A stretch of DNA of 64,000 bases from Candidatus Parcubacteria bacterium (GTDB lineage Bacteria > Patescibacteriota > Minisyncoccia > Phycocordibacterales > JAKFXT01), in contig JAIOOV010000003.1 in the NCBI GenBank assembly GCA_021414235.1, positions 37,560 through 101,559 of the forward strand, in the 5' to 3' direction. Position numbers and translations under genes: made by a program. Position 1 is the first letter of the stretch, and each line of letters starts with the position of its first letter. Below, in pieces: positions 11,099 through 62,756 of this stretch. The notes beneath the pieces were generated by a model, which was not told the DNA's origin, made no database searches, and worked only from the letters and a program-made list of their open reading frames with translations.

Positions 11099-11100
11099 GA

Positions 11101-17747: not shown

Positions 17748-17766
17748 AGACCGCGCCGCTTCGAAA

Positions 17767-27777: not shown

Positions 27778-28851
27778 TCAAGCCGACCATTTGGAAAATG
27801 AGCTGACAATGGTTCCGTATACCGGCAAGGAGGGCAGCCACGTACCAGGGAGCTGTACAGGAGAGGAGGTGTAATTGGCATTTCCAAAGCCTAGCTTGCC
27901 ATTCAACCCATGCCCCCAAAGCCACAATGAACCATCGGCTTTTAAAGCAGATGTATGAAAATTCGCTGCAAAAACAGAAACCCAGGTGCCCGCAAGCTGC
28001 ACTGGAGAAGAACGGTCAATAGTATCCCCGAGCCCCAAGCGACCACTCGCACCAGTGCCCCAGATCCACAGAGAACCATCGTCTTTAATGGAAGCTGTGT
28101 GATTTGCTCCAGCGGCCACCATACTCCACGAGCCAGATATCTGCACCGGAGAAGAACGGTCAGCAGTATCAGCAAGACCGAGCTTCCCAAGCGCTCCAGC
28201 TCCCCAGACCCACAGAGAGTTATCAGGTCTTAAGGCAGCACCGAACGCGCCGCCAAGTTCTACGATTTTCCATGTTCCAGCGAGCTGCGCTGGAGAGGAG
28301 CGATTCAAAGTATTTCCAAGACCCTGTCTCGCGTTAGTACCCGCACCCCACACCCACAACGTTCCGTCCGATCTCACACTTGAGCCGAAGGCGATGCCAA
28401 GAGATACGCTTTTCCAAGTCCCCGCGATCTGCACCGGAGAAGAGTGGTCTATTATGACCCCAAGACCGTGTCGTCCGCTTGTGCCATTACCCCATCCCCA
28501 GAGCGAGCCGTCTGGCTTCAGCGCGATTGAATGGGTGTTACCAAGAGAAGCGGCACTCCATGTACCAGTGATCTGCGTGGGAGAGGAGCGATCAAGAGTA
28601 TCTCCAAGACCGTTCCTCCCGTTGGCAGCAGCCCCCCATAGCCACATGGAAGCATCTGGTCGAAAACCGATGGAGTGAGCGTTACCGAGCGTTATCGCGC
28701 TCCAAGTGCCCGCAAGTTGCACTGGAGAGGAGCGGTCGGCCGTATCTCCAAGACCCATCCGGCCACTGGAACCCGCGCCCCATATAAAAAGATTGGGACC
28801 GATATCCTTAGCGGCAGCCTGAGAATTGAAGGACAACCGATCCGACAGCAT
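27778..28851 (-). CDS. RCC1/BLIP-II-type seven-bladed beta-propeller repeat protein.
   Basis: Seven copies of LW(V/L)WGxxxxGxLGLGDTxDRSSPVQ(I/L)AGTW; no evident signal peptide. Confidence 0.8.
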   Translation of the reverse strand: MLSDRLSFNSQAAAKDIGPNLFIWGAGSSGRMGLGDTADRSSPVQLAGTWSAITLGNAHSIGFRPDASMWLWGAAANGRNGLGDTLDRSSPTQITGTWSAASLGNTHSIALKPDGSLWGWGNGTSGRHGLGVIIDHSSPVQIAGTWKSVSLGIAFGSSVRSDGTLWVWGAGTNARQGLGNTLNRSSPAQLAGTWKIVELGGAFGAALRPDNSLWVWGAGALGKLGLADTADRSSPVQISGSWSMVAAGANHTASIKDDGSLWIWGTGASGRLGLGDTIDRSSPVQLAGTWVSVFAANFHTSALKADGSLWLWGHGLNGKLGFGNANYTSSPVQLPGTWLPSLPVYGTIVSSFSKWSA

Positions 28852-31646: not shown

Positions 31647-31794
31647 CGAGTATTACTATCCTTTCTTTTGTTCCGTTCTAACCGTCCTTTCCCGGTACGG
31701 TGTCGGTCGCTCCAATTTAAGGTTTAAGAGCGATTACCTACTTCTTGCGAAGTATCGGCCGATCAGTCCTAGGCTTGCGCCCGGACATTTCAAT

Positions 31795-33288
31795 TTGAAT
31801 AATTCCACGAACAGCTTCCGCTACCCGTGCCTTGTTACGACTTACTCCCTGTCACCGAGCTTACCGTGATCCCGCTTGCGCGGGGCTTCGGGTATTCCCG
31901 GCTCCCTTGAGTTGACGGGCGGTGAGTACAAGACTTGAGAACGTATTCACCGCGGTATAGCTGACCCGCGATTACTAGCGATTCCGGCTTCATGGAGTCG
32001 AGTTGCAGACTCCAATCTGAATTGGGGCCACCTTTCTAAGGATTTGCTCCGGCTCGCGCCATTGCGTCCCGTTGTAGTGGCCATTGTATCACGTGTGTAG
32101 CCCAGGGTATCTAAGGGCATGCTGACCTGGCGTCATCCTCTCCTTCCTCCCCCGCAGCTACGCACCTTTCTTTTTAGAAAAGCTGCGCAATTGCGGGGGC
32201 AGTCTCGCCTGACACTTGAAACAGGCAACGAGGGTTGCGTTCGTTACCCCACTGAAGGGAACAGTTCAAACCACGAACTGACGACGGCCATGCACCACCT
32301 GTCTAGCCGCCCTTGTGAGGCGCTAAATCTTTCGGCTTAGCTTCGTCTAGATTTCTAACCCTGGTAAGGTTCTTCGTTTAACGTCGAATTAAACCACATG
32401 ATCCACCGCTTGTGCAAGTCCCCGTCTATTCCTTTGAGTTTTAACCTTGCGGTCGTACTACCCAGGCGGTTTTCTTAACGCGTTAGCTTCGCCTCTCAGA
32501 GGGTCGATTCTCCGAAAAGCCAGAAAACAAAGTTTAGGGCGTGGACTACTGGGGTATCTAATCCCATTCGCTACCCACGCTTTCGTGTTTGAGTGTCAGA
32601 AATGCGCCAGCATGCTGCCTTCGCTTTCGGTGTTCCCCATAATATCAACGGATTTCACCCCTACACTATGAGTTCCGCATGCCTCTCGCACTCTCTAGTC
32701 GTACCGTTTCCCCCGCAGATCCAGGGTTGAGCCCCGGGTTTTAACAGAAGACTAATACGACCACCTACACACCCTTTACGCCCAATGATTCCGGATAACG
32801 CTTGGGGCCTCTGTATTACCGCTCCTGCTGGCACAGAGTTAGGAGCCCCTTATTCATGAGGTACCGTCAATTACTTCTTCCCTCATAAAAGACCTTTACG
32901 TCCCGAAGGACTTCATCAATCACGCGGCGTCGCTCCGTCAGGCTTGCGCCCATTGCGGAAGATTCTCGACTGCGGCCACCCGTAGGTGTATGGACCGTAT
33001 CTCAGTTCCATCGGTGGGGGTCAGCCTCTCAGCTCCCCTAAGCGTCGTCGCCTTGGTAGGCCATTACCCTACCAACTAGCTGATACTGCGCAGGCTTCTC
33101 CAGAAGCGATAAATCTTTACTCTCGCGAGACTATCGGGAATTATCCTGCCTTTCGGCAGGTTATGCCCGACTTCTGGGTAAATTCCTACGTGTTACTACC
33201 TCGTCTGCCGTGGGTCTAACCCACTCGACTTGCATGCCTTATCCACGCCGCCAGCGTTCATCCTGAGCTAGGATCAAACTCTAATAAA
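31795..33288 (-). rRNA. 16S rRNA, about 1.5 kb, no large insertions; transcribed alone, unlinked from the 23S-5S unit.
   Basis: 5' end ...UUAUUAGAGUUUGAUCCUAGCUCAG (plus-strand complement at 33271-33287); 3' region ...AAGUCGUAACAAGG plus helix 45 with a CGGAAG loop; many universal blocks (e.g. the complements of GTATTACCGCGGCTGCTGGCAC and GGACTACCAGGGTATCTAAT on the plus strand). Confidence 0.9.
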
Positions 33289-33562
33289 AGAGATGTTGTC
33301 GCGATACAAAGCTTGCGCCTTGTATCGGGACACTATATCCGTTCGAACGGAACAAGAGAAAAGATAGTCTTTACTCATGCGTTTCGATGGTACTCAGGAC
33401 TCCTGTTGATTAGACAGGATCCGAAATCATTTTTTGGAATAATTCTACTCCAACTTGCACAAGACCAATGTCTTGTTTGGCCCCTCGCAGCCGATGAGGG
33501 CGGAGGGGCTATGTCGTAACTTTTTCAAACATCAAGCCTCACCCATTCGTGAGGCAGGAATG

Positions 33563-36333: not shown

Positions 36334-37248
36334 CTACTCCACCCCGAAGATCCTTTTCAGCTCAGCGATGCCCTCTTCAAGCCTCACCTTAGGCTCCCAG
36401 CCGAGGAGCTCCCGCGCCTTCCTGTTGTCCGCCATGGAATCATGCGCTTCGATGCGCGCCGGGCCATAGACGATCTCGCCCCCGAAGAGGTCTGCCAAAG
36501 CCTTGATGGAAACGTTGCGCCCGGCGCCTACGTTTACCACCTCACCCTTCCCCACCCGAGGACTTTCTGCCGCAAGGAGATTTGCTGCCACCACGTCGCT
36601 TACATGAGTAAAGTCGCGGGTCACCGTACCATCCCCATAGATAGTGATGGGTGTACCGTTTTTTCTTGCAGAAAGGAACCTGCCGATGGCGAGCGCATAA
36701 GGACCTTCAGGGTCAAGTCCAGGACCATAGACATTGAAATAGCGAAGAGAGACGGTCTCGATCCCATAGATCTCTGACCACATGCGCGCAAAAAGTTCGC
36801 CGACATACTTCTGGAGACCGTACGGATTCACCGGGTTCGCAGGCAGACCCTCGGAAAGAGGGAGCGTCTCCTGGGATCCATAAGCGGAGCCGGAAGCAGA
36901 ATAGACGACACGGCGCACCTTGGCCCGGGCAGCGGCAGTAAGTACGGAGACGGTGCCAGTGATGTTCTCGTCGGTTGTCTCGACCGGGTGCTCGATGGAG
37001 TACGGCACGCGCGGGATAGCGGCGGTATGAAAAACCACATCCGCACCTTCCATAATCGTCTGGATCTTGTCAGTCTTGCGCACATCTACCTCATGAAGCA
37101 CAGCTTCCTTGGGCAAGGTCGCTCGGCGAAGCGATGGATCCTTATCGATGATGGAGACCTCCCATCCGGCTTTGACGAGGGCGGCGGAGAGATTACTTCC
37201 GATGAATCCAGCACCTCCAGTGACCACCGCTTTTTGAGACTGTCCCAT
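36334..37248 (-). CDS. NAD-dependent sugar-nucleotide epimerase/dehydratase (GalE/WbpP-like SDR).
   Basis: VVTGGAGFIGSNL Rossmann motif, YxxxK (YGLQKYVGE). Confidence 0.9.
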   Translation of the reverse strand: MGQSQKAVVTGGAGFIGSNLSAALVKAGWEVSIIDKDPSLRRATLPKEAVLHEVDVRKTDKIQTIMEGADVVFHTAAIPRVPYSIEHPVETTDENITGTVSVLTAAARAKVRRVVYSASGSAYGSQETLPLSEGLPANPVNPYGLQKYVGELFARMWSEIYGIETVSLRYFNVYGPGLDPEGPYALAIGRFLSARKNGTPITIYGDGTVTRDFTHVSDVVAANLLAAESPRVGKGEVVNVGAGRNVSIKALADLFGGEIVYGPARIEAHDSMADNRKARELLGWEPKVRLEEGIAELKRIFGVE

Positions 37249-37263
37249 GTCGCCGATTATACA

Positions 37264-38598
37264 CTACGCGCCCGAGCGAGAGAGGATTGTCTTTATGGTC
37301 TTAAGCGCGATCTTGAGATCGAGGACGAGGGAGCGGTTCTTGAGATAGTAGAGATCGTAGGAGAGCTTGCGGCGGGTCTCGGGGATATCTACGCCATGAT
37401 GAGGGTGAGCGTCATGGTAGATCTGCGCCCAGCCGGAGAGGCCCGGAGTGATGAGGTGACGGAGGTGATAGAACGGAATGGCGGCGACATACTCAGCGAC
37501 GAGCGCGGGCAATTCGGGACGCGGACCGATGAGCGAATAGTCTCCCCAGAGAATATTCCAGAGCTGCGGCAGCTCATCAATACGGGTCTTGCGGAGGAAG
37601 GCACCTACCGGGGTTACCTTGTTCACTACGCCAGCCACACCCTGCACGCCCTTGTCGTCGACGGACATGGACATGGAGCGGAACTTGATCAGACGGACGG
37701 ATTTTCCCTCCTTGCCGATGCGTTCCTGGTGAATGAAGAGCGGCCCTCCATCCTGGAGCTTCAAAGCGATCCAGACGAAGGGATAGAAGACGAGAGAGAC
37801 TGCGCCGAGCACTGCCGCGAGGAGGATATCGAAGGCACGGCGCATGGCGCTGTACCAAAGAGACACTTCGTTCACATATTCGATCGCCCAGTTAGGCTTC
37901 AGGAGCGTAAGCGGCATGCGGTCAAAAATCTCTTCATAGAGGCGACCCGCATCGACAAAACGCACAGAGGGCTTCCCGTAGAGAGCGGAGGAGATAGTGC
38001 TCGCCACGGAGGAATCGTGAAAGTCAGCGACAATGAGGGAGGCTCCGCTCTTCTCGAGAACTTCCGGAAGCGCGGAGAGGTCGTCCTTGAGGATGACCGG
38101 AAAATGGAACGAGTAACGCGGATTCTGATTAATCTCTCGGGCGAGGTCCTCGATATCTTCCCCGGAACCTATGAGTATCGCCTTCTCGCGGGAGCGGAGT
38201 GCGAGGAGTTCCGGACCATAGAGGCGCCAGAAGAACAGGAGCCCGGAAGAGACCAAGAAGTAGAGGAAGAGACTCGTCTTAGGGTTGATGCCATAGGAAG
38301 GGCTCACATAGAAAAACGCTACCGCTATCCCCGCATTCGCGATCTGGGCGTTCGCGAGAAGAAGAGCGAGCTTCCTCTTGAAGAAGAGCGTGTGCTTTTC
38401 ATAAAGACCGGCGATGAAGAAAACCACGATCCAAAATACGGAGAGGATGGAGAACGGGAGGGCGTGCAGGCTCCAGAGAGATGCGCTCGGCACCTCGAGA
38501 TAGCGGAGATAGAGAGCGAGCCAGAGACCGACGGCGAAACACGCTAAGTCACCCGCAAGGAGTACGAAGGGCTCGCGGCTCTTCGGAGAAATTTTCAT
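37264..38598 (-). CDS. Polyprenyl-phosphate glycosyl-1-phosphate transferase (bacterial sugar transferase, WbaP/PssY-like initiating enzyme).
   Basis: Four or five N-terminal TM helices; C-terminal catalytic domain FIHQERIGKEGKSVRLIKFRSM...DELPQLWNILWGDYSLIGPRPELP. Confidence 0.9.
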   Translation of the reverse strand: MKISPKSREPFVLLAGDLACFAVGLWLALYLRYLEVPSASLWSLHALPFSILSVFWIVVFFIAGLYEKHTLFFKRKLALLLANAQIANAGIAVAFFYVSPSYGINPKTSLFLYFLVSSGLLFFWRLYGPELLALRSREKAILIGSGEDIEDLAREINQNPRYSFHFPVILKDDLSALPEVLEKSGASLIVADFHDSSVASTISSALYGKPSVRFVDAGRLYEEIFDRMPLTLLKPNWAIEYVNEVSLWYSAMRRAFDILLAAVLGAVSLVFYPFVWIALKLQDGGPLFIHQERIGKEGKSVRLIKFRSMSMSVDDKGVQGVAGVVNKVTPVGAFLRKTRIDELPQLWNILWGDYSLIGPRPELPALVAEYVAAIPFYHLRHLITPGLSGWAQIYHDAHPHHGVDIPETRRKLSYDLYYLKNRSLVLDLKIALKTIKTILSRSGA

Positions 38599-41784: not shown

Positions 41785-41815
41785 ACGATCTAAAATGAGT
41801 CATTGAATGCTTTAA

Positions 41816-41929
41816 CCTGGCGACTACCTACTTTCCCCTTGCGAGTATCATCGGCACTACGGTGCTTAACGGCTCTGTTCGGAATGGGAAGAGGTGTGGC
41901 CACCGCGTTAAATCACCAGATTGAAGGAT
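41816..41929 (-). rRNA. 5S rRNA.
   Basis: Complement reads CUGGUGAUUUAACGCGGUGGCCACACC...CCGAACAGAGCCGUUAAGCACCGUAGUGCCGAUGAUACUCGCAAGGGGAAAGUAGGUAGUCGCCAGG, collinear with E. coli 5S. Confidence 0.85.
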
Positions 41930-42209: not shown

Positions 42210-45530
<3,321 letters not shown>

Positions 45531-45679
45531 GTCAGGAGATCTATGAATCACTACTTTGTTGTCTTACTTACCTGCCCCTCTCCATCGCCCTAAAAGACCC
45601 TTAAGCCCCGCTTGCGCGGGAAAAGGAGGCGGCGTGAGGGAATGAAGTTGTCAACGTTCGTGGATTCGGTCGATTCTCC

Positions 45680-46655: not shown

Positions 46656-47279
46656 CTAGACACGCGCTGCAGCACGTCGTGTGGATAAGCCAGTCTGCCG
46701 AGCGAGGTCGTAACGATCAACGATGACCCGATGCGGGTAATCAAACACATCGCGCACGAGCTTGTCATAGATATTCAAACGATAGTCGAAGTCCGCACCA
46801 GAGAGCACCGCATAGCGGAGCTCTCTGGTGCACTCGAGCTCGAGTTCGCGCACCGCCTTCTCCAGATGCTTCCTCTTAAGCTTGTCCCCCACGATAAGGA
46901 GATCGAGACGGCTCTCCGGATTGTCCACGAAGAAGCCAGCGGAAACCAGGAGCTTCATCGTGCCCGCCTTAGTGAAGCGCTCCTTAAGCTGGGCATCCCC
47001 GAAAGGGGCTATCTCTCGTACCAGCTCGCGGAGGACATCCGCATGCGGGAACTGACGGTTGAGAGAGAGCCTGACCTCCTTCTTGCCGCGGAGCGGGGTG
47101 CGCTCCATGACGAGCCCCATGCTCTTGAGGGAGGAGAGTTCCCGACGAGCTTTCTTAGCGTCTACGCCGGTGCGCTTGCGGATATGTTCCCCATCGAAAG
47201 CAGTAGTCGGATTGAACAGGAAGAGACGAAGGAGCTTAGCCATGCGTTCTCCACCGAAGAGCTTAGGGGCGATATCCAT
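46656..47279 (-). CDS. Hypothetical protein with putative N-terminal winged-helix DNA-binding region.
   Basis: ORF track; LLRLFLFNPTTAFDGEHIRKRTGVDAKKARRELSSLKSMGLVME resembles a wHTH. Confidence 0.5.
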   Translation of the reverse strand: MDIAPKLFGGERMAKLLRLFLFNPTTAFDGEHIRKRTGVDAKKARRELSSLKSMGLVMERTPLRGKKEVRLSLNRQFPHADVLRELVREIAPFGDAQLKERFTKAGTMKLLVSAGFFVDNPESRLDLLIVGDKLKRKHLEKAVRELELECTRELRYAVLSGADFDYRLNIYDKLVRDVFDYPHRVIVDRYDLARQTGLSTRRAAARV

Positions 47280-48368: not shown

Positions 48369-48536
48369 AGTTTCTTCTTTTTATAGGGGCAAACAAAAAG
48401 CCCCTTACAGGGCTCTCACCCAGCTGAGCTGGGACGTAGATTCGACCTTCGGTAGGCTAGATTAAGGCTCTTGCGAGCCGCCTACTGTCTTGAGGCCTGT
48501 GAGGAGGATAGTACCGAGAGACTGGCTTGGTGTCAA
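48369..48536 (-). promoter_or_regulatory. Structured rplJ 5' leader (candidate L10(L12)4 autoregulatory leader).
   Basis: ~170 nt between the upstream terminator and the rplJ ATG, with several hairpins (GGGGC-aaacaaaaa-GCCCC; CCCAGCTGAGCTGGG). Confidence 0.35.
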
Positions 48537-48586: not shown

Positions 48587-48742
48587 CTAGCGCAATGCCG
48601 ATTCCCAGAAGGAAGCTACAGAGGCACCAAGCTCTGCACCCGAAGCATAGCTATACAGGGAGAGTCCCAGGAAGAAGATCATGCCCATGGTGATGATCCC
48701 CACGAAGCTCGCTGCGAACCGGAAGAAGGATTTATTGAACAT
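48587..48742 (-). CDS. Candidate 51-aa small membrane peptide (MFNKSFFRFAASFVGIITMGMIFFLGLSLYSYASGAELGASVASFWESALR).
   Basis: Manual translation; begins 15 nt after the TPR gene stop; below the ORF-track cutoff. Confidence 0.3.
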   Translation of the reverse strand: MFNKSFFRFAASFVGIITMGMIFFLGLSLYSYASGAELGASVASFWESALR

Positions 48743-48757: not shown

Positions 48758-49561
48758 CTACTCGATAGCTTTGAGTTCGGCCTTGAGAGTGATCACTAGA
48801 GCGTCATTCTTAAGCTCTGTGGCCACCACGATCGCCTGCTGATAGTAAGTGCGTGCATCAGCGAGATTGCCCTTACTGCGATAGTAGGTCGCAAGCGCCA
48901 CCATGAGGTCAACCGCTTTAGGGTTCTGCTTTATCCCCTGCTGCAGGATATCAGCCGCCTTAGTGGTGTTCTGCTGATAAGAGAGACGGTAAAGATCGTG
49001 GAGGTTGAGGTAGGAAAGCAAGTACTGAGGATCATTATGAACAGCCTGCTTTAAGTTCATCTCCGCGCGCACGTAATCCTTGAGCTCGTAGTGATAGAGA
49101 TTGCCGATGTTGTTGTAGGAGACGATGTTGGTCGGACTCATAAGCGAGACATACTCCCAGGCTTCGCGCGCCGCCTCGTAGTCATTAATCGTCTTGTACC
49201 GGATGCCGAGGTCGATCCAAGCATTGAGGTCCTTCGGGTTATTACGGAGTCGGACACGGACAGCTTCAATATCTGCCAAGACGATAGCCTTCTCCTGGAC
49301 CGTGAAGCTCGCAGGAACAGAGATCTCCCGGTTGATGAACGGATGAGGAGGAAGACCAGAGCCAGACTCAGAAGGCACCGGAAGCGGAGTGATGGTTACT
49401 GGCGCGCTCGTGGAAGCACTGACCGGGAAATTAGATTCGGGGGTGGTAGTAGCGCCAGAAGCGGGAGTATCAGAAGAAAGACTCTGCCATTTCCAAACAC
49501 CGAAACCTGCTACTCCTATGAGTACTGCTGCACCGACAACTATCAGGATATTTTTCTGCAT
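48758..49561 (-). CDS. TPR-repeat protein with N-terminal signal/anchor.
   Basis: MQKNILIVVGAAVLIGVAGFGVW; several TPR-like repeats (AWEYVSLMSPTN..., ATYYRSKGNLADARTYYQQAI). Confidence 0.7.
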   Translation of the reverse strand: MQKNILIVVGAAVLIGVAGFGVWKWQSLSSDTPASGATTTPESNFPVSASTSAPVTITPLPVPSESGSGLPPHPFINREISVPASFTVQEKAIVLADIEAVRVRLRNNPKDLNAWIDLGIRYKTINDYEAAREAWEYVSLMSPTNIVSYNNIGNLYHYELKDYVRAEMNLKQAVHNDPQYLLSYLNLHDLYRLSYQQNTTKAADILQQGIKQNPKAVDLMVALATYYRSKGNLADARTYYQQAIVVATELKNDALVITLKAELKAIE

Positions 49562-49594
49562 AGAGCTATTGTAGCTATATTTCCAAGTAACGCA

Positions 49595-49622
49595 AAAACC
49601 CCGCCGTGAGGCGGGGTTTTTG
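49595..49622 (-). terminator. Terminator after the giant surface protein gene.
   Basis: AAAAACCCCGCC-gtga-GGCGGGGTTTTT. Confidence 0.6.
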
Positions 49623-49677
49623 CTAACCGTCCCGACGATTAGCCTAAGCTAACCGTGGGATCCAGAGTAACGATGTG

Positions 49678-52600
49678 TTACTTGGAGATGGTGACGGAAT
49701 CCATGTTGTCGGACGGAAGGCCCGAGACAAAGTATCCGTTGGTCCAGTCGTTGCCAGTCGTAGCAGACGTGGTGGTCGAGTTCGGAGACCAGACGAAGTC
49801 GTCATTGCCATCCGCATCGATTGCCACAGCGTCATCCATGAGAGCGGCGAGAGACGGGTATGCCGCATCTCCATCGATCTTAGTGATGACCTGACCGCTG
49901 GTTACGCCGCCCGTGAGAGTGACATCACCCTGTACCTTGAAGTAGTAGGTGCTGCCAGTCGGGATGCGGAAGTAGCCAGAGGAAGCGCCCGTTACAAGCA
50001 CATCGTTAGCACCGCTCGAGACGAGTCCGGCGATAGTCGTGTTGACCTGACCAGAAGTGGTGAAGCCAGAGACTGCCGAGCTGAACGAGCTATCGGTGTA
50101 GGCCATGATCTTGAGGTTCGTCACGGTCGTGGAAGAAGTTCCAGACGGAGTGGACGAAGTCGAGACGTTGACCGTGAACTTGTAGATGGAGACTCCGTCG
50201 CTGCCGGCCTGACCAGTAGAGGTCACGCTGAAGCGGTAGAGATCCATGCCGGACTGCGTGCTGAGGACGCTATTCGGGATGCTCAAGCGAGCAAATACCG
50301 GATAGGACTTCATGACGCGGATGCCGTCAACGTCGGAGTCCGAAGAGGAACCGGTGTTGAGGGTGGTGCCGGATTCAACGCCCGTACCCTGGGTACCCGT
50401 CGAGTCGTTGCCATCGTAGTCAACCTTCACGAGGTGACCAGAGGAAGTGGCGTTCTGGCCAGTACCAACGGTGCTCAGGTCAACCTTGACGGTGATGAGC
50501 TTGGTGCTGTCCTTAGGGACGCGGAAGGACTGGGTAAGAGTCGAGGTAGCCGTGCGATTCTCACCGGTGAAGGTGGCCTCGCCGACCTTAGTGGAGCCAT
50601 CCCAGAGGGAGACCTTCGTAAGGTGAGACGGGGTGCTCGAAGCGGCTACGCCCGAGAGCTGGAGAGCAACACGAGTGATGTCTACAGCTTCGTTGGTGCC
50701 TGCGAAGCGGAGTACGCCTGCAGTGACACCGGAAGTTCCGCCAGCCGCGATCTGGTAAGACGGGCTAGAAGAATCCTTGGTAACAGTGAACGAACCTGCG
50801 CCGATGGTCTGAGTCTGACCGGTAGCAGCCGTGACAGTCTCAGAGACGTCAGCAGAGGACGTTACGCCAGTGACCGTGATGGAAGGAGACGATGCGATAC
50901 CCCACGAGAAGGTGTTGTTCGTCACAGCAGAAGCCGAGACGTTACACTTAAGCGTAAGAGTCTTGATCGTGCCCTTCGAAACCACGAGGGACTGGTCGAA
51001 GGTGTAAGTCGCAGAGCCAGAAGCCGACGGATTGACCACGTTCGAGCTGTTGAGCGCGGTGGTGCCGTCGTAAAGCTGACAAGACGAGAGAGAGGTGGCT
51101 ACAGCCGATCCGCCGAGCGTGAGCGTAAGCGGGATCGAAGAGAAGCGCACATCCTCGCCAGACTGAGTCGCGTCAAGCTGGACGTTCGTGAAGATACGAG
51201 ACTGTCCACCAGGAACGATGGTCTGAGCAGCCGGATCGGACGAGATCGTGATGGCAAGAGCTGCGCCCTTGACCGTCATGGTGTTCATCGCGAACTGACC
51301 GTTCGAGAGAGTGATGCTGTTACCAGTAGTCTGACCGCGAACCGTCGTCCAGTTGTCCGAAGGAGTAGTGGACGCGATGTAGGTCGAGTTAGAGGCAACA
51401 CCAGTCGGGACCTTACCCTTGAGGGTGTAGGTCTGCTTGCCAACCGGGTAGGTGATGGTGTCCGAGAAGACAACCTTCTGGTTCGTACCGCCTACGGCAG
51501 TTGCATCTACCGGACCTGCGACGACCGCACCGTTCGAGTCAACGAGGGTAACGTTCGTGAGGAGAGCAGAAGAAGCTGCACCGGAAGTGGTGAAGTAGAA
51601 GGTAGAAGACTGGACAGTGATCGCCTCGCCCTTGATGTCGGTCTCATAGCCGCCGAGTACCTGGTTAGGCACGTTGACAGCGATGTTCTGAGAAGCGACA
51701 GAGGTGGCCTTGGCGATCGTGGTTGCAGTACCGCCAGTGACGGTCACGAGAGAACCGTGGAACCAAGGGGTACCAGCGGTGAACTCAGACGTGCTGTCGG
51801 AAGCAGAGCTTGCGCCAGCCGGAGGAGTCACGCCGTAACCGTAGGTCTCGCCAGTTGCGTAGACGTCAGTGCGGTTTGCGATGTCGAAGCGGACCGTGCG
51901 GCCAGCAGCGTTGCCACCGACGATGTCACCCTGGATGTAGATATCCTTGGAGAGACCCTTGTCGATGACGAGACCGGAGCCGAAGGAAGCAGTGACATAC
52001 TTACCATCTGCAGAAACCATGGTGTCGTAGCTCGTGCCATCTACGAAGACCTTGATGTTAGCGAGGTCAGTCGTGAGAGAAGCAGAACCGGCCTGGTTCC
52101 AACGAACGGACCAGAGGCGGAGCTTCTCGGCAGAACCCGCGGTGACGCGGACGCCGGCAAACTTGTAGCCAGTGGTGCCGATCTCCTTGCTTGCCGAAGT
52201 GTTCGGGTCAAACGAAGAGACAGCGTTGGTGATAGTACCGATTGTGAGAGACGCGTTGATGGTGTGACCTGCGCCGGCGATCGGGAGCGAGCCAGAGACC
52301 GTAGCAGAGGTGTTCACTGCGACGACCGAGAGCATTGCTACCTGACCAGCGTAGGAGTCAAGCGTCGAAGCCATGTTACCAGCGACAGTCACCGTCTTAG
52401 AAGTTCCCTTCTTGACGACGAACGGCTCGCCTACAGTAGCCTGGTTGTTCGAGTTGAGAGTCTTTGCGATGCCGATCTGAGTACCGTTCTCATCGAGGAG
52501 GACGATACCGTCGAAGACGGCGTTCTGAGCGAGACCGCCGCGCTCAACCACAAGGCTGTTGACCGTCACATCACCATCGTTAGACGCGGTGAGGACGACC

Positions 52601-53178
52601 TTGGTGAAGGGAACGCGAGAAGCGTTCTCAGGAGCCAAGGAAGCCGCAGGCTGAGTTGCCGCAGAGATCGAGAGACCCGTACCGGCAGGAGTGGTGGGAG
52701 TGGTAGGGGTAGTAGGGGTGGTCGGAGTCGTCACCACGACCAAGGAGTTGAGCTTGGCGCGGGTGAGCGGACCGACAGTACCCGTAGTGGAGATTCCGTA
52801 CTTAGCCTGGAGCTTCATCACTGCAGCCCGGGTAGCCGGACCGAAAGTGGTGGTTTCCATGCCAGGAGAACCTGCACCTGAGAGAGCGACGCGAGTCGCT
52901 GCATCCCTGTTGAGAGCTATCTGGAGCTGCTTCACTGCCTCGCCCTTCGAGCCGAGCTGAAGGTTAGTAGTGAAGTTGTAGCCCGTGCCAGCAGTAGAGC
53001 CGCCCGTGTTGAGCTGACCCTGAAGCTGGGAAATCATCGCCAAGAGGCTGGCAATCTGCGCCTGAAGCTCTTCAGCAGTGGCCGCGTTTGCAGACGACGG
53101 CGCAACTACGAAGGACAGGGCCATTGCGAAGCCCACAAAACCGGCGACTACTTTCGCAGTTTTCGATTTTAATGCCAT
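49678..53178 (-). CDS. Giant (1166 aa) secreted cell-surface protein: signal peptide, peptidoglycan-binding domain, (TPT)n linker, then ~900 aa of Thr/Ser/Gly-rich Ig-like/beta repeats (S-layer or adhesin candidate).
   Basis: Signal MALKSKTAKVVAGFVGFAMALSFVVAPSSANA; PG_binding_1-like LQLGSKGEAVKQLQIALNRD...FGPATRAAVMKLQAKYGISTTGTVGPLTRAKL; TPTTPTTPTTPTTP; no Cys. Confidence 0.85.
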   Translation of the reverse strand: MALKSKTAKVVAGFVGFAMALSFVVAPSSANAATAEELQAQIASLLAMISQLQGQLNTGGSTAGTGYNFTTNLQLGSKGEAVKQLQIALNRDAATRVALSGAGSPGMETTTFGPATRAAVMKLQAKYGISTTGTVGPLTRAKLNSLVVVTTPTTPTTPTTPTTPAGTGLSISAATQPAASLAPENASRVPFTKVVLTASNDGDVTVNSLVVERGGLAQNAVFDGIVLLDENGTQIGIAKTLNSNNQATVGEPFVVKKGTSKTVTVAGNMASTLDSYAGQVAMLSVVAVNTSATVSGSLPIAGAGHTINASLTIGTITNAVSSFDPNTSASKEIGTTGYKFAGVRVTAGSAEKLRLWSVRWNQAGSASLTTDLANIKVFVDGTSYDTMVSADGKYVTASFGSGLVIDKGLSKDIYIQGDIVGGNAAGRTVRFDIANRTDVYATGETYGYGVTPPAGASSASDSTSEFTAGTPWFHGSLVTVTGGTATTIAKATSVASQNIAVNVPNQVLGGYETDIKGEAITVQSSTFYFTTSGAASSALLTNVTLVDSNGAVVAGPVDATAVGGTNQKVVFSDTITYPVGKQTYTLKGKVPTGVASNSTYIASTTPSDNWTTVRGQTTGNSITLSNGQFAMNTMTVKGAALAITISSDPAAQTIVPGGQSRIFTNVQLDATQSGEDVRFSSIPLTLTLGGSAVATSLSSCQLYDGTTALNSSNVVNPSASGSATYTFDQSLVVSKGTIKTLTLKCNVSASAVTNNTFSWGIASSPSITVTGVTSSADVSETVTAATGQTQTIGAGSFTVTKDSSSPSYQIAAGGTSGVTAGVLRFAGTNEAVDITRVALQLSGVAASSTPSHLTKVSLWDGSTKVGEATFTGENRTATSTLTQSFRVPKDSTKLITVKVDLSTVGTGQNATSSGHLVKVDYDGNDSTGTQGTGVESGTTLNTGSSSDSDVDGIRVMKSYPVFARLSIPNSVLSTQSGMDLYRFSVTSTGQAGSDGVSIYKFTVNVSTSSTPSGTSSTTVTNLKIMAYTDSSFSSAVSGFTTSGQVNTTIAGLVSSGANDVLVTGASSGYFRIPTGSTYYFKVQGDVTLTGGVTSGQVITKIDGDAAYPSLAALMDDAVAIDADGNDDFVWSPNSTTTSATTGNDWTNGYFVSGLPSDNMDSVTISK
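52692..52733 (-). repeat. In-frame tandem repeat encoding (TPT)n linker.
   Basis: GGTGGGAGTGGTAGGGGTAGTAGGGGTGGTCGGAGT on the plus strand. Confidence 0.6.
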
Positions 53179-53269
53179 ACGTTATTAATTACTGAACGAA
53201 AGATATGCAGCACGCGTTGTGCCGCATATTCCCTCGGTGTGGGATTTGACGTCGGAATCGACTTACCGA

Positions 53270-53278
53270 CTATCCACA
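53270..53278 (-). promoter_or_regulatory. Near-consensus DnaA box (cTATCCACA) in the 600-bp intergenic region.
   Basis: 8/9 match to TTATCCACA. Confidence 0.35.
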
Positions 53279-53609
53279 CTGCAACGCACACGGAGTGACC
53301 CGCACGCGCTACACAACTATCCCGTACGCTTCTCTATCTTTCGACAGAGGGCGTACAGGGTAGCTTGCGGAATGATAATGGTGGTTCGGACACGCGGTAA
53401 AAGAGAGGGATTGATCATCCATTCGGGAATGCTTTGAGTTTGGTGGTTTTCCAAACCTCTATGAAATTGTCAACGATCGTTCTTTTGAGGGCCGGTCGGA
53501 AACTTCTTCGGTATATCGGTCGTTCAGTAGTGATGACGGACACGACATAGAATATGTCGAACCGTAGCGCGAATTATAGTATTCGCCTCACTCCCCTGCA
53601 AAAGTTTTT

Positions 53610-53618
53610 TGTGGATAA
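53610..53618 (+). promoter_or_regulatory. Perfect DnaA box (TGTGGATAA) within extended motif TTTTTTGTGGATAACTCC. A degenerate copy TTTTTTGTGGGAATAAG lies at 53647-53663.
   Basis: Read directly; the same 15-mer occurs at 62742-62756. Confidence 0.45.
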
Positions 53619-53734
53619 CTCCCGAAAAAAGCCTTTATCAGGCTCTTTTTTGTGGGAATAAGCCACCTCGCCATGCTCGCATAAAAAGACCCCGAAGTCA
53701 ACGAAATTAAGGGATATTCCTATATAAGGAGAAA

Positions 53735-53787: not shown

Positions 53788-54549
53788 TTACCGCAGAGAG
53801 TAGCGGCTCCAGCGACGCTCCCCTTCACGCTTAAGGACACCCTGAGCGACCAAGCTTCCGAGCTCGCGCTGGATGGTCTTCTCACCTACGCCCCGTATAT
53901 GGCTGGCAATGTCTTTTATACTCAACGGCAACGAGCTCCTCTTGATGAGGTCGAGAATAGAGAGGGAGCGCTCCTTGGTCACGGCAGGTTCTTGTCCTTT
54001 ATTCTGTCCCATAGAAGAAGGCGTGCGGCGCGGGAGACTGCTCGCAGGCGTAGCAAAGGTGGAAGCCGATACATAGCTCGGATCAAGCACGCTCGAGACA
54101 GGAAGGAGGCTAGGGACCGGGGGCATCGCATCAGTTTTTAAAAGCTCTTCGGAGAGAGCGATGACCGGAGCTGAGGAGAGATTCTCCGCCTTAGCGAGAA
54201 TCTCAAGCACCTGGTCGTACTCATGCTTCAGCACCTCCGCATTCATAGGAGAGATGAGGCGTGCGCCAGAGGCGATCTCGAGGAGCGAGAGAATCTCCAG
54301 GATCTTCACGGACGGAAGCATCCCGCGCATCGTAGCCGAAGAGAGGATGTCCTTAACGAGTCCCACGGAGAGCTCGCGCAAATCACGACGAAGCTTCTCC
54401 TCCTCAGAGACAAGATCTGTCACCAGGTAGACAGCGGCCGCGAGCTTCTGGCTCTTCTTGAATGCAAAGAGAAGACCGTCATTCCCCTTGAACAGGGCGG
54501 TATTCTGGTAGCTCGGAATCATCTTGTCCTTTTGTTCTGTATCGGACAT
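53788..54549 (-). CDS. Putative transcriptional regulator with C-terminal winged helix (N-terminal domain unknown).
   Basis: C-terminus LSIKDIASHIRGVGEKTIQRELGSLVAQGVLKREGERRWSRYSL (HTH plus wing). Confidence 0.55.
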   Translation of the reverse strand: MSDTEQKDKMIPSYQNTALFKGNDGLLFAFKKSQKLAAAVYLVTDLVSEEEKLRRDLRELSVGLVKDILSSATMRGMLPSVKILEILSLLEIASGARLISPMNAEVLKHEYDQVLEILAKAENLSSAPVIALSEELLKTDAMPPVPSLLPVSSVLDPSYVSASTFATPASSLPRRTPSSMGQNKGQEPAVTKERSLSILDLIKRSSLPLSIKDIASHIRGVGEKTIQRELGSLVAQGVLKREGERRWSRYSLR

Positions 54550-58336: not shown

Positions 58337-59767
58337 CTACTGCTTCAGACCCAAGCTGTTATTCCTGCCTCCAGACATAAGTCCCCAAGCGCCCGTAACC
58401 TGCACAGGAGATGAACGATTGACGAGATCGCTTAGACCAAGCTGCCCCGTATCGTTGAGGCCCCACGCGAACATCTGACCATTGGTCCTCGATGCTACGT
58501 GATGATATTGGCCGGATCCGACAGATAACCATGTACCCGCAAGCTGAGTCGGCGAAGAGCGAGTGACGACATCGCCATGACCGAGGGCCCCCTGGGAGCC
58601 AAACCCCATAGAGAACAGAGCGCCATTCGAACGGAGAGCCAGTGAATGGTGGCTGGTGTTATGAGAGAAAACCGAAGACCAAGAAGTGTCGGCCCCCACC
58701 TGTACCGGAGACGACCGATTAATCGCATCGCCGAGTCCCATAGCCCCAAGGGCGTTATACCCTCCTATCCCCCAGAGGGTTCCGTTGCTACGCACCCCCA
58801 TGGTGAGATGTACGCCGCAAGCAACAGAAGACCAGGTGCCCCCAATCTGTACTGGGGAGGAGCGGTTTACCTTATCTCCTAAACCTAGATGCCCGAAAGT
58901 GGTATTCCCGCCGGTGCCGAACAGCTCTCCGGAAGAATTTATAAAATGCGAACGTCCGCTCCCGCCGAAGACGTCCGTCCAAACACCAGAAGATATCTGG
59001 ACGGGAGAGGATCGCTTAGCCGTATCAGAGAGGCCAAGTGCGCCAGAGGCGTTATACCCCCACCCCCAGAGCGTACCGTCAGCCTTTATACCGAGAGTAT
59101 GGTACTGCCCCGCAGACACGGCCACCCAGGTCCCCGCGACCTGCGTCGGGGAAGAGCGGCTAGCGATATCGCCAAGCCCTAGTTGTCCGTTGCCATTATC
59201 ACCCCAAGCAAACAAAGAGCCGTCCGTACGCAAAGCCAAAGCGTCATAGCGTCCTCCTGTGGCGCGTACCCAGGTGCCCGCCAATTGGACAGGAGAAGAG
59301 GCGTTGACAGTGGTAAGTCCTTGTCCCACGGCACCAACGCCTCCATGACTGCCCCAACTAAAGAGCTGACTTCCGCTTGATGAGTTTGGCATCGCTACGC
59401 TCCCTCTCCAGGTCGTGCCGTTGTCAGTCGTAAATAAAGTCAGAACATCAGTACCGATAACCGAGAGCGTCGGCGCAACAGAGTTCTGCCACTTAGTGCC
59501 ACTCATCCAGGTAGTGGTGAATCTGCCACCGTTGGTGAGGACTAAGGTGAAAGAAACATATTGAGTGGCAGAGGGAATATTAGTTATCGAGAAGGTGGTG
59601 GCTGCGGTTACCGTAGCCGTCACTACCGTGCCGAGGGAAAGATCTATGGCGGTAGCGCCGCTCACGTTGCCGAGGGCATTCTGTGTCTCCGCGTAGCCAC
59701 GCAGGTCAGCGTTGTCTAAACGCGCATTGCTCAAATCGAGACGGGAGGCAGATAGCTTGATAGCCAT
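58337..59767 (-). CDS. RCC1/BLIP-II beta-propeller protein with ~150-aa N-terminal Thr-rich beta domain (paralog of 27778..28851).
   Basis: Blades W(G/A)xNxxGxLGLGDxxxRSSP(V/T)Q; N-terminal region LDLSNARLDNADLRGY... followed by TVVTATVTAATTFSITNIP...; start uncertain (MAIK vs upstream TTG). Confidence 0.75.
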   Translation of the reverse strand: MAIKLSASRLDLSNARLDNADLRGYAETQNALGNVSGATAIDLSLGTVVTATVTAATTFSITNIPSATQYVSFTLVLTNGGRFTTTWMSGTKWQNSVAPTLSVIGTDVLTLFTTDNGTTWRGSVAMPNSSSGSQLFSWGSHGGVGAVGQGLTTVNASSPVQLAGTWVRATGGRYDALALRTDGSLFAWGDNGNGQLGLGDIASRSSPTQVAGTWVAVSAGQYHTLGIKADGTLWGWGYNASGALGLSDTAKRSSPVQISSGVWTDVFGGSGRSHFINSSGELFGTGGNTTFGHLGLGDKVNRSSPVQIGGTWSSVACGVHLTMGVRSNGTLWGIGGYNALGAMGLGDAINRSSPVQVGADTSWSSVFSHNTSHHSLALRSNGALFSMGFGSQGALGHGDVVTRSSPTQLAGTWLSVGSGQYHHVASRTNGQMFAWGLNDTGQLGLSDLVNRSSPVQVTGAWGLMSGGRNNSLGLKQ

Positions 59768-59849
59768 TTTAGGAATTATAGCAAACTTCAATAGCTTCTC
59801 CTCTTGTCCTAAAGCGTAAGACGAGGCACAAGGAGCCGTCTCCTCCTCT

Positions 59850-60324: not shown

Positions 60325-62667
60325 TTAAACGATCTCGCACGTACCTCCTGCGCACGCTAATTCCTTCTTCTGCTCCGTCTCATCCTGCATCTCGTAGGTC
60401 ACGAGCTTGGAGTAGTCGATGCTGCCGAGGCGCGAAGAGAGGAGTTCGTACGTCTCCTTGGTGCACTTCTCGTAGGGCGCCAGACGATAAACATGGTTCT
60501 CGCGCGGGAGGAAGGAGAGGCCGCCAATTATCTCCCAGTTCTTGTAGACCCAGTTGACCACGTCGATCCATTCATCGTCCCCCACCGAGATGGTGGTCGA
60601 AGGGTTATGCTCGGTGAAGTTGAGCTTGACCATCTTCCAGTACTCGAGCTGCTCGATAGCGGTCTGATCATCTTTGAAGATAGAGCCGCTCGGTGCCTTG
60701 ATCGGGAACTCCAGCACGTAGGTATTGGCGTTCTCCATGGTCTGGCCCACTTCCGGATGATACGGCACACCCTGATCCTTCATCATCTTAAAGAGCGAGT
60801 CGGTCGCAGAGATGCGCACGCGGCGGATGTAGTAGGGCGCATGGCGCGGATGCATGCCGGAAGAGCTGTTGATGGTCTGAGAGACGGTGCCAGAGGGCTT
60901 CACGCAGGTGATGGAGGAGGAGACGTTCACTCCGAAGCGCTTGGCATACTTCTGGTTCACCTTGATAGACTCATTCTTCATAGCCTTCATGGTGTCCGCA
61001 TTACGCACCGCCGGGGAGTCCCACTGGCCGGTGATGGAGACGCCGAGGAGGCGCTCCTTCTCGCAGTTGTCCTTCCATTCCTTGGAGAGGTAGCCGAAAT
61101 TAGTGAGAGTTGATTGATAGGTACCGACGAGGGTGGCGAGGCGCGTCTTCCTGAGGAGAGACTCCTTGGTGTCGCTCGCACGCGCTACCACCTCAGTGAG
61201 ATTACAGAACTGCTTGCTCTGGAGGATGATCTCGCCACAGGGGTTGGTGCCCACCTGACCGAGGCGGCCCTTGCCATACTTCTTCTCGAGGAGCTCGATA
61301 CGGCGCTTCGGCATGGTCTTCGCCAAGGATCCACGATTGAAGATGCCGCGCTCGCCGCTCTTACTCTTCATGAGAGCCACCCACTCATCCATGAGCTCTT
61401 CGGTAGAAGGCTTCTGCTCGTAGACGGCGGAGTTGTTGGAGATGGAGCGGTGTGGGTCGGTGAGGAAGAACTGACCCTTCTTGGCATCACGGATGAGATC
61501 GTCATCGAGGTCAGAGAGGGAGATCATGGCCGAGCGACGCACGCCACCTGCCACTACGCACTCACCGATCTTACAAAGGATGTCGTGGGCATCGATGTTG
61601 CGGAGGCGCCGTCCCTGGCGGGAGAGGATCGCACTGCGGGAGAAAGCGAGAAGAGACTGGAGAGGTGCCGGGCCGGAGGCCTTGCCACCCATGGTCTTGA
61701 GGCGCGCACCGGCTGGCCTGATCTGGGAATAATCAAAATCGATATCCTTGCCTGCGTACCATGTCTCAAGGCCCAAGGTGAGCGCATCGCACCAGCCCTC
61801 CTTGGAGTCGTCGACAACGTGGGTCTTCAGTTTTTCTCCGATCTGCCTCTCAATCTGCGGAAGCTGCTGGATGTTCTGGCTCTCTGCAGAGAAGCCGACG
61901 CCAGTGCCGCACATAGAGATGTACATAACCTCAGCGAAGTCCCGAAGCTTGGTGGGGGCGATAAAGGAGCAGTTGTAAGCACAGACGTTCGTCTTGGCGG
62001 CTGCCTTGCCTGCGAACTGCATGAGACGCATAGACGGCATGATCTCCTGCTTGCGGATGGCTTCGCGCACCTCATCGTACTCTTTCTTAGTGAGCTTGTC
62101 TCCCAAGTTCTGCTTCATGAAATCTATATAACGCTCCACCGTCTCCACCCAGGTCTCGCGGCGGCCTTCTGCTTCGATCCAGGAAGAGTAGCTGCGGAGA
62201 TACACGAACTCGCCGAGCGGATTGTTCTTGAAATATTTAGCGCTCTCCTCCGCGAGCTGACGCACGCGCTCCGGGACTTCCACGCCCATAGAGCGAAGCT
62301 CTGAGCGCTTCTGGCGATAGAGGATGTAGTTCTTGGCAGTCTGCACGTACTCCGAGAGGATGAGCTCCCGCTCCACCGTGTCCTGTATCCCCTCCACCGT
62401 CGGCAGGAAGTTCTTGTACTTCTTGCTGATCCTCACCAGGTCAGCAAGCACCTTGTTGGCCACGAGCGCAGCCTCGTCCACCGAACCCTCGCCGGAGGCG
62501 AGCATGGCCTTGTAGATGGCCGTCTCCACCTTGTCCATGTCGAAAGGAGCGATGGTGCCGTCGCGCTTCTGGATCTGTTTGACGAATTCGTTCGTCTTGG
62601 GCGTCCGAGCCAAGGGCACCTTTGCCTTGGGGAGAGAAGCGGAGACAGCTGTTTTGGTGAGGGTCAT
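60325..62667 (-). CDS. Ribonucleotide reductase large (catalytic) subunit with N-terminal ATP-cone; likely class II (adenosylcobalamin-dependent, NrdJ-type), since no R2 subunit gene is adjacent.
   Basis: ATP-cone VKQIQKRDGTIAPFDMDKVETAIYKA; active-site NPCGEI; C-terminal redox Cys pair CAGGTC. Confidence 0.85.
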   Translation of the reverse strand: MTLTKTAVSASLPKAKVPLARTPKTNEFVKQIQKRDGTIAPFDMDKVETAIYKAMLASGEGSVDEAALVANKVLADLVRISKKYKNFLPTVEGIQDTVERELILSEYVQTAKNYILYRQKRSELRSMGVEVPERVRQLAEESAKYFKNNPLGEFVYLRSYSSWIEAEGRRETWVETVERYIDFMKQNLGDKLTKKEYDEVREAIRKQEIMPSMRLMQFAGKAAAKTNVCAYNCSFIAPTKLRDFAEVMYISMCGTGVGFSAESQNIQQLPQIERQIGEKLKTHVVDDSKEGWCDALTLGLETWYAGKDIDFDYSQIRPAGARLKTMGGKASGPAPLQSLLAFSRSAILSRQGRRLRNIDAHDILCKIGECVVAGGVRRSAMISLSDLDDDLIRDAKKGQFFLTDPHRSISNNSAVYEQKPSTEELMDEWVALMKSKSGERGIFNRGSLAKTMPKRRIELLEKKYGKGRLGQVGTNPCGEIILQSKQFCNLTEVVARASDTKESLLRKTRLATLVGTYQSTLTNFGYLSKEWKDNCEKERLLGVSITGQWDSPAVRNADTMKAMKNESIKVNQKYAKRFGVNVSSSITCVKPSGTVSQTINSSSGMHPRHAPYYIRRVRISATDSLFKMMKDQGVPYHPEVGQTMENANTYVLEFPIKAPSGSIFKDDQTAIEQLEYWKMVKLNFTEHNPSTTISVGDDEWIDVVNWVYKNWEIIGGLSFLPRENHVYRLAPYEKCTKETYELLSSRLGSIDYSKLVTYEMQDETEQKKELACAGGTCEIV

Positions 62668-62747: not shown

Positions 62748-62756
62748 TGTGGATAA
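62748..62756 (+). promoter_or_regulatory. Perfect DnaA box within TTTTTTGTGGATAACCCC, ~80 nt upstream of the RNR start codon.
   Basis: Read directly from the sequence. Confidence 0.45.

Follow-up and report, generated by a model that had tools for sequence, protein, structure and literature searches.

A gene on the minus strand of a contig from Candidatus Parcubacteria bacterium (GCA_021414235.1, contig JAIOOV010000003.1) quite probably encodes the main surface-layer (S-layer) protein of a member of the class Paceibacteria (Parcubacteria) within the Patescibacteria, or candidate phyla radiation (CPR). The stretch of DNA analysed here, referred to as the window, comprises 64,000 nucleotides (nt; positions 37,560 to 101,559 of the contig). 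The gene is an intact open reading frame (ORF) of 1166 codons at positions 49678-53178 of the window and we regard it as real. An initial annotation of this DNA had given this ORF, and an ORF of 1068 codons on the opposite strand (49675..52881, plus), exactly as they are found here, and had named the product as a candidate for an S-layer protein or an adhesin. The former proposal is supported by the fold, the length, the synteny and a published prediction, and the latter is weakened.

The case is cumulative. A signal peptide, a wall anchor, a linker, a six-domain fold, constant length, conserved synteny, presence in single copy and an S-layer-like composition together make an S-layer protein the most likely product, as far as a structural model allows. 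By analogy, the architecture is the logic of an S-layer protein of the Gram-positive type.

Protein architecture and predicted fold

The protein of 1166 amino acids (aa) contains 14.6% Thr, 12.5% Ser, 10.6% Ala, 10.5% Gly and 9.9% Val, residues which add up to 58%, and the mature protein is acidic (isoelectric point 5.1). With only two cysteines, this composition is typical of S-layer proteins. A monomer model was built with AlphaFold2 on an alignment of 53 sequences (A1); its mean predicted local distance difference test score (pLDDT) was 84.2, and 558 residues reached at least 90. The features of the gene product are listed below. The boundaries of the domains D1-D6 are approximate and were drawn from secondary structure and profile-profile periodicity.

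49678..53178, minus: predicted S-layer coding sequence, 1166 aa, from the ORF list; stop codon at 49678-49680
53083..53178, minus: signal peptide, aa 1-32, MALKSKTAKVVAGFVGFAMALSFVVAPSSANA with A as the next residue, read from the translation
53008..53076, minus: amphipathic helix, aa 35-57, AEELQAQIASLLAMISQLQGQLN, a DSSP helix of low confidence
52738..52980, minus: PG_binding_1 domain, aa 67-147, predicted wall anchor, from Pfam and the model
52684..52737, minus: disordered Thr/Pro-rich linker, aa 148-165, pLDDT <50, with (TTP)5 at 52687-52731
52225..52683, minus: beta-sandwich domain D1, immunoglobulin-like (Ig-like), aa 166-318, all-beta, pLDDT ~90, column identity 0.75
51733..52224, minus: beta-sandwich domain D2, aa 319-482, from the model; hhalign probability 96.5% to D4 and 91% to D5
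51265..51732, minus: beta-sandwich domain D3, aa 483-638, from the model; hhalign probability 97% to D4 over 149 columns
50794..51264, minus: beta-sandwich domain D4, aa 639-795, holding C700 and C745, from the model; hhalign probability 97.6% to D5
50323..50793, minus: beta-sandwich domain D5, aa 796-952, from the model and hhalign
49681..50322, minus: C-terminal beta domain D6, aa 953-1166, from the model; the least conserved

Part of this scheme agrees with what had been read from the letters of the sequence before, namely the signal peptide, the PG_binding_1-like domain and the richness in Thr, Ser, Gly and Val. The signal peptide shows a Lys-rich n-region, a hydrophobic core and an ANA/A cleavage motif, all recognised by eye, and residues 1-38 are disordered in the model. 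The amphipathic helix that follows is kept in the family (consensus LQAQIxSLLATIxxLQxQL in A1). The wall-anchor domain scored 40.1 bits against the Pfam family PG_binding_1 (PF01471; cut-off 23) over aa 79-143 and adopts a three-helix fold in the model. A search of the PDB matched it to the peptidoglycan-binding module of 1lbu; sequence and profile searches of the PDB returned nothing beyond this module.

The five-unit repeat of the linker, described in the initial annotation as a perfect tandem repeat in the DNA, is perfect as a peptide (TTP five times, aa 150-164) but not as DNA: Tandem Repeats Finder reported period 9, 4.7 copies and 78% matches. The DNA matches only to this extent because synonymous codons differ from unit to unit (ACG ACT CCG / ACC ACC CCT / ACT ACC CCT / ACC ACT CCC / ACC ACT CCT). 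Across the 53 homologues the linker varies in both length and sequence, with a column identity of 0.42.

From aa 166 to aa 1166 the model consists of an uninterrupted run of beta-strands, divided into six domains of about 155 aa (the last has 214 aa) with pLDDT values of roughly 80-94. A region of about 900 aa of beta-type repeats had been expected here. The beta fold is borne out, but in place of repeats there are six diverged domains, and D1-D5 are related to each other only at the profile level. D2, D3, D4 and D5 are interrelated with hhalign probabilities of 91-98%, and D1 is linked to D4 with 90%. For D6 no relationship to D1-D5 was detected (at most 10% to D2-D5 and 40% to D1). Column identity among the 53 homologues is 0.67-0.75 in D1-D5 and 0.56 in D6. 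Structure prediction of this region, which had been proposed as a check, thus yielded six Ig-like beta-sandwich domains.

The protein was also thought to be free of cysteine, which is not the case. It contains two, C700 (SSCQLY) and C745 (LKCNVS), and both are invariant in A1. In the model C700 lies in the beta-strand 697-704 and C745 in the strand 738-747 of D4, and the two may form a disulfide within this domain.

Several known classes of secreted protein were considered and set aside. A protein with S-layer homology (SLH) domains is not indicated, as no SLH family appeared among the Pfam matches at E<=1. The C-terminus ...SGLPSDNMDSVTISK, ending in DSVTISK, carries neither LPXTG nor another sorting signal, and the anchor is N-terminal; an LPXTG adhesin would have a C-terminal LPXTG motif, a hydrophobic segment and a basic tail, none of which was found. 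An alpha-2-macroglobulin-like inhibitor was rejected as well: there were no alpha-2-macroglobulin families in the Pfam scan and no CxEQ thioester motif, and Foldseek TM-scores were about 0.1. The top Foldseek matches were stalks of adhesins and receptors, namely the Ig-like domains of PrgB, AgI/II BspA, the pilus tip protein PitA and integrin legs.

Family, conservation and gene neighbourhood

At least 1445 relatives were found in a database clustered at 90% identity, the nearest of them 62% identical to the window protein. The best 120 were nearly all full-length (1121-1222 aa) with identities of 52-62%. Among representatives clustered at 50% identity there were 8492 matches at E<=1e-3, of which 905 reached E<=1e-30; the complete ones are about 1100-1280 aa long. 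Few names are attached to these proteins ('hypothetical protein' or 'peptidoglycan-binding protein'), and their sources are given as Parcubacteria, Paceibacterota, Minisyncoccia and Zambryskibacteria. In a collection with one genome per species, relatives occurred in 447 stretches, including Kaiser-, Yonath-, Taylor-, Nomura- and Zambryskibacteria.

Gene neighbourhoods were counted by tblastn in the best 80 related loci. The gene is present in single copy in most genomes sampled; just one genome among these loci had two copies. This was a metagenome-assembled genome whose copies (L039, CAYGHQ010000013.1, and L079, CAYGHQ010000025.1) are 51% and 47% identical to the query. They may represent a paralogue or a bin of mixed strains.

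The gene order is conserved. RecA, a small Glucodextran_B-like protein and FtsK are encoded on one strand; diverging from them are genes for a winged helix-turn-helix (wHTH) protein, the S-layer protein, a TPR protein and a small peptide with a single transmembrane (TM) helix, and rplJ-rplL often come after the last, which encodes 45-61 aa. The neighbours in the window are as follows.

53788..54549, minus: wHTH neighbour, cytoplasmic, 253 aa, winged helix at the C-terminus; weak HTH matches at aa 194-252
48758..49561, minus: TPR partner, a 267-aa membrane-anchored protein with TPR Pfam matches
48587..48742, minus: small single-TM peptide, 51 aa, with the conserved pattern downstream of the TPR gene

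The wHTH gene lies upstream on the same strand in 76 of the 80 loci, and FtsK is found in 74. The TPR gene is present in 69 loci, in 63 of them downstream on the same strand. That a TPR protein and a 51-aa membrane peptide adjoin the gene had been pointed out before; both are located downstream of it. An ORF of 45-61 aa with the pattern M..F..KF..GF.AI follows the TPR gene in four other loci, and the small-peptide ORF comes directly after the TPR gene in L001, L005 and L086. Searches of NCBIfam and Pfam with the wHTH protein, a 207-aa protein and the small peptide gave nothing beyond the weak HTH matches.

Two further observations concern this neighbourhood. In L086 (positions 1-1548; metagenome contig ORMF010113454.1) the FtsK gene beside the S-layer homologue contains an intein with a LAGLIDADG endonuclease domain. 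Just upstream of rplJ in the window, at 48385-48512 (minus), there is a sub-threshold match to the L10 leader (29 bits; gathering threshold 44) near a promoter TTGACA-17-TACTAT (48536-48508). This may be a divergent L10 leader.

Relation to described S-layer proteins

In a preprint by Johnston, Isbilir, Alva, Bharat and Doye (bioRxiv 10.1101/2024.05.28.596244), a scan of a Nealsonbacteria genome led to the prediction of a Patescibacteria S-layer protein with six Ig domains. Its table gives related proteins from Nealson- (A0A1G2EN61, 1131 aa), Kaiser- (A0A0G1WWP5, 1173 aa) and Doudnabacteria (1264 aa), from Kazan (1274 aa) and from Parcubacteria (GMX59286.1, 1185 aa). According to the multimer prediction described there, the six-domain protein very clearly tends to form hexameric spiral pyramids and a p6 lattice of 18.5 nm. 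In two of the three Paceibacteria that Kuroda et al. studied, homologues are stated to rank in the top five signal-peptide genes by expression; Kuroda et al. for their part proposed a role in host attachment for highly expressed proteins with PG-binding domains. Cryo-electron microscopy (cryo-EM) of a Nealsonbacteria enrichment revealed an apparent S-layer, and a paper on a Parcubacterium genome states that formation and structure of the CPR envelope remain unclear.

To judge from architecture, size and taxa, the window protein very probably belongs to this six-Ig family. It shares with the members described in the preprint the phylum and classes, a signal peptide, six Ig-like domains, a length (1166 aa) within the range of 1131-1274 aa and a large number of homologues. 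There is probably no fundamental difference; the window protein is a new sequence. An 1185-aa homologue (P0270) was considered as a candidate for GMX59286.1 and was rejected, since it comes from an unrelated metagenome assembly. The protein itself therefore appears to be an ordinary member of a family whose S-layer function was already predicted in 2024, and in this respect our analysis mainly re-finds that prediction. The promoter box, the leader, the terminator, the neighbouring genes, the cysteine pair and the PG_binding_1 anchor go beyond the passages of the account by Johnston et al. used here.

Smaller Patescibacteria S-layer proteins with three Ig domains are described in the same passages: GMX57981.1 of Yanofskybacteria (692 aa) and UMX47672.1 of Nealsonbacteria DGGOD1a (727 aa). 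Compared by description, they have in common with the window protein the phylum, secretion, Ig-like domains and predicted p6 pyramids. They differ in having half as many domains, in the unit cell (13.5 nm as against 18.5 nm) and in a gene location adjoining ATP synthase b'. The three-Ig gene is reported to be the most highly expressed one in Ca. Yanofskyibacterium. Johnston et al. ascribe six Ig-like domains, a left-handed spiral and a p6 lattice to the csg protein of Haloferax volcanii as well. It is an archaeal protein, however, and is lipid-anchored via a C-terminal signal of the PGF-CTERM type, whereas the window protein has an N-terminal peptidoglycan anchor. Among the solved S-layer chains, none showed sequence similarity to the window protein in the profile search.

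SLH-anchored proteins of Bacillota (SbsB and SbsC of Geobacillus, Sap of Bacillus anthracis) show the same general layout, an N-terminal wall module followed by Ig-like domains as 'beads on a string' (PMC13635256). Their anchor is SLH rather than PG_binding_1, and the predicted lattice type and the sequence family differ too. SLH anchors bind a pyruvylated secondary cell-wall polymer, while PG_binding_1 would bind peptidoglycan itself. The three-helix module at aa 67-147 is shared with wall enzymes such as the Zn D-Ala-D-Ala carboxypeptidase of Streptomyces albus (1lbu), SleB, phiKZ gp144 and CtpB. In contrast to these, the window protein has no catalytic domain, and the rest of it is structural beta-sandwich.

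Alternative explanations

A number of points weigh against an S-layer function. To our knowledge, the S-layer anchors that are commonly described, SLH for instance, do not include PG_binding_1. S-layer proteins usually evolve fast, and identities of 50-60% between species are high by this standard. What the structure searches brought up were tandem-Ig proteins of a generic kind; a solved S-layer protein was not among them. Our case was built from the sequence and a predicted monomer, and the lattice is taken from a published prediction. Membership in the published family was judged by architecture, size and taxa, and none of the published accessions turned up when 20 homologues, selected for their length or origin, were looked up. 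Finally, the lattice measured on Patescibacteria (13 nm) is, according to the preprint cited above, a better fit to the three-domain relative than to the six-domain protein.

It might be thought that the protein is a wall-anchored fibrillar adhesin, standing as single stalks without a lattice and binding a bacterial or archaeal host through its C-terminal domain. The stalks of PrgB, AgI/II BspA, PitA and integrins that head the Foldseek matches would be in keeping with this, as would the host attachment that Kuroda et al. proposed, and D6, the distal and most variable domain, looks as a ligand-binding tip might be expected to look. The number of domains is nevertheless fixed at six, and the length hardly changes across hundreds of species; the divergence between the domains is too great for a recent repeat expansion, nearly all genomes carry one copy in a housekeeping neighbourhood, and the C-terminus (...DSVTISK) has no sorting signal. 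Moreover, the published multimer modelling of the same architecture yields a lattice (bioRxiv 10.1101/2024.05.28.596244). An adhesin is for these reasons improbable. Still less probable, in our view, is an abundant structural protein associated with peptidoglycan, such as a sheath or a wall-spanning scaffold, that does not form a regular two-dimensional crystal. The arrangement of anchor, linker and beta domains and the strong expression signals described below are equally compatible with such a coat, and it could be taken to speak for one that the lattice spacing found by cryo-EM on unidentified Patescibacteria (13 nm) does not agree with the value predicted for the six-domain protein (18.5 nm). 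Set against this are the very clear hexameric spiral pyramids predicted in the preprint and the strong conservation of D1-D5, which fits conserved protein-protein contacts.

We give almost no credence to the idea that the plus-strand ORF is the real gene. That it remains open over 1068 codons is the sole point in its favour, and this is explained by codon usage. The ORF is the codon-aligned reverse frame of the S-layer gene, in which stops could arise only from TTA, CTA and TCA codons on the sense strand; there are two of these, and the frame is open because they are nearly absent. In three homologous genes of lower GC content, with 26-39% A at third codon positions (A3), the equivalent frame contains 57, 63 and 86 stops. 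The 1068-aa product has no Pfam match and a nonsense composition rich in Arg, Asp, Gly and Ser, while homologues, Pfam domain and confident fold all belong to the minus-strand frame. From these comparisons of sequence the plus-strand ORF is an artefact and not a gene, as the initial annotation had maintained.

49675..52881, plus: antisense ORF, 1068 aa, artefact; no Pfam match, stop-rich in homologues

The extreme compositional bias of the strand that was assumed at the same time did not hold up. A3 in the S-layer gene is 5.8%, the lowest value in the window, but most genes there have 6-19% and three others 6-7%. Long open antisense frames are mostly a general feature of this low-A3 genome; the bias is genome-wide and the S-layer gene is unexceptional. 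Long antisense ORFs also lie over SecA (2156-3238, plus) and over the ribonucleotide reductase (RNR) gene (61114-62304, plus). Elsewhere, two ORFs of 519 and 444 aa overlap on opposite strands (36988-38547, plus, and 37264-38598, minus).

Promoter, leader and terminator

The region upstream of the S-layer gene contains a predicted promoter of the sigma-70 type and, just ahead of it, the 9-mer TTATCCACA, which is identical to what we take to be the DnaA-box consensus. The expression signals are as follows.

53610..53618, minus: TTATCCACA box, a perfect 9-mer at about -53 to -45 (centre about -49)
53573..53602, minus: predicted sigma-70-type promoter, TTTGCA (53602-53597), 18 nt, TATAAT (53578-53573), 10/12 consensus match
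53179..53566, minus: predicted structured 5' leader of about 388 nt, placed from the position of the promoter
49592..49623, minus: intrinsic terminator hairpin AAAAACCCCGCC-UCAC-GGCGGGGUUUUU, 3' of the stop codon, from a terminator scan
4619-4627, 46680-46688, 53610-53618 and 62748-62756, minus: perfect matches to the 9-mer in the window

Upstream sequence was available for 77 related loci, and every one of them has a single perfect copy of the box ahead of the S-layer gene. The geometry is kept across loci: the box, about 8 nt, TTTGnA, 17-18 nt and TATAAT. In 58 of the 77 loci the distance from the end of the box to the -10 hexamer is 30-32 nt. The distance from box to start codon, by comparison, ranges from 206 to 831 nt (median 478), and the intergenic region measures 609 nt in the window and about 695 nt (median) across the related loci.

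The 9-mer is also over-represented beyond this gene. In the window there are 4 copies (0.24 expected), all on the minus strand, and they precede the minus-strand genes for SecA, an MscS-like channel, the S-layer protein and a class II RNR; -10-like hexamers follow 19-38 nt downstream of them. The related loci (L006-L085), 983 kb in total, contain 128 copies, where about 7.5 would occur by chance; about 76 of these stand at the S-layer gene and 12 before the MscS-like gene. The remainder are found mostly before ORFs with a signal peptide or a TM helix at the start of the product, and also before IS200-like ORFs. Judged by its distribution in these sequences, the 9-mer looks like the mark of an envelope and secretion regulon. 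No paper linking the motif with Patescibacteria was found in the searchable literature.

A cluster of DnaA boxes or a replication origin was considered and rejected. Each promoter has one box, and degenerate boxes nearby are not enriched (0.96 against a background of 0.80). The promoter region of the S-layer gene is not a replication origin because the box is single at each promoter. A possible explanation for the conservation of the box could lie in regulation. The 9-mer at about -49 might control the S-layer gene together with envelope and secretion genes (SecA, the MscS-like channel, small TM proteins, signal-peptide proteins and RNR), and DnaA, or alternatively the wHTH neighbour, might couple coat synthesis to the cell cycle. 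We offer this tentatively and consider it rather doubtful.

The leader is predicted to be strongly folded, with a minimum free energy of -135.9 kcal/mol (z=-6.35 against 100 shuffles), and has no match in Rfam. A search for a shared motif in 75 leaders yielded no more than AT-rich words and some 8-mers that part of the leaders share (TTGTGTCG in 24 and GTTGACA in 13 of them); ATTAAAAA was present in 32. An A/T-rich stretch precedes the start codon, CAGTAATTAATAACGT-ATG in the window (53179-53200) and ...ATTATTAAAAACATATAT-ATG in others (L001, L003 and L005, alignment A2). No Shine-Dalgarno sequence stands at the usual position directly before the ATG in the window, L001, L003 or L005.

Downstream of the gene, the 129 nt at 49562-49690 fold with -63.2 kcal/mol (z=-10.3). 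Sub-threshold Rfam matches at 49575-49704 were dismissed, as they merely reflect the terminator hairpin. A further terminator-like hairpin (53630-53644) lies between the wHTH gene and the S-layer promoter. The S-layer gene looks like an insulated, monocistronic and strongly expressed unit, since it has its own predicted promoter, a structured leader and a strong terminator, and a hairpin separates it from the wHTH gene. Its A3, the lowest in the window, is a further indirect sign of high expression. Characterised S-layer genes have a similarly insulated and strongly expressed layout.

A model for the surface coat

If the gene encodes the S-layer protein, the following course of events may be envisaged. 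The gene would be transcribed alone from its strong sigma-70-type promoter, with the TTATCCACA operator just upstream of the -35 hexamer, into a transcript with a long structured leader that ends at the strong terminator. Sec would export the preprotein, which would lose its signal peptide of 32 aa. The N-terminal PG_binding_1 domain would then attach the protein to the peptidoglycan of the cell itself by non-covalent binding, and the disordered Thr/Pro linker would span the wall. The six beta-sandwich domains would build, by self-assembly, a hexagonal (p6) lattice from spiral pyramids, the variable domain D6 facing outward. The co-conserved TPR protein and small TM peptide would probably help the protein to assemble or to be anchored.

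Linker and domains may in addition be O-glycosylated. A gene cluster at 5930-16280 (minus) encodes a fusion of Wzy_C (O-antigen-ligase-like) with TPR, a GT9 and four GT4 glycosyltransferases, an asparagine synthase and a methyltransferase. It is a candidate for a pathway of surface-protein glycosylation, and the Wzy_C/TPR fusion and the GT4/GT9 genes would fit such a modification. The initial annotation had placed the glycosylation genes and the fusion near the S-layer gene, but they are in fact 33-43 kb away.

Other features of the window

The rRNA genes are dispersed, with the 16S gene set apart from the 23S and 5S genes by about 9 kb that contain protein-coding ORFs.

31793-33289, 41815-41920 and 42214-45536, minus: rRNA genes (16S, 5S and 23S, in this order), from rRNA model matches

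The 23S match extends over 3323 nt (the model has 2925 nt), which indicates an insertion of about 400 nt. Unlinked rRNA genes and an oversized 23S rRNA are common traits of Patescibacteria. A 'tRNA-???' reported by ARAGORN at 44173-44246, within the 23S gene, is probably spurious. Large minus-strand ORFs at 16308-17813, 17767-19782, 27778-28851 and 58337-59791 encode a protein with lamin-tail and PKD domains, a TraG/VirD4-like coupling ATPase and two RCC1-repeat proteins.

Significance

A large part of bacterial diversity belongs to the Patescibacteria (CPR), and little is understood about their envelope. With the coat protein tied to a near-universal gene of the Paceibacteria, the anchor domain, the partners conserved beside it (TPR protein, small membrane peptide and wHTH protein) and the expression signals would become starting points for experiments in Minisyncoccus archaeiphilus, the one cultured relative, as well as for studies that use markers. 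What is added to the passages of Johnston et al. drawn on here is the conserved gene cluster, the invariant cysteine pair and, above all, the invariant DnaA-box-like operator. If this operator is functional, it would be a rare example of a defined cis-regulatory element for Patescibacteria. Should the proposed role of DnaA prove true, the protein would double, in bacteria with minimal genomes, as the initiator of replication and as a regulator of the surface coat.

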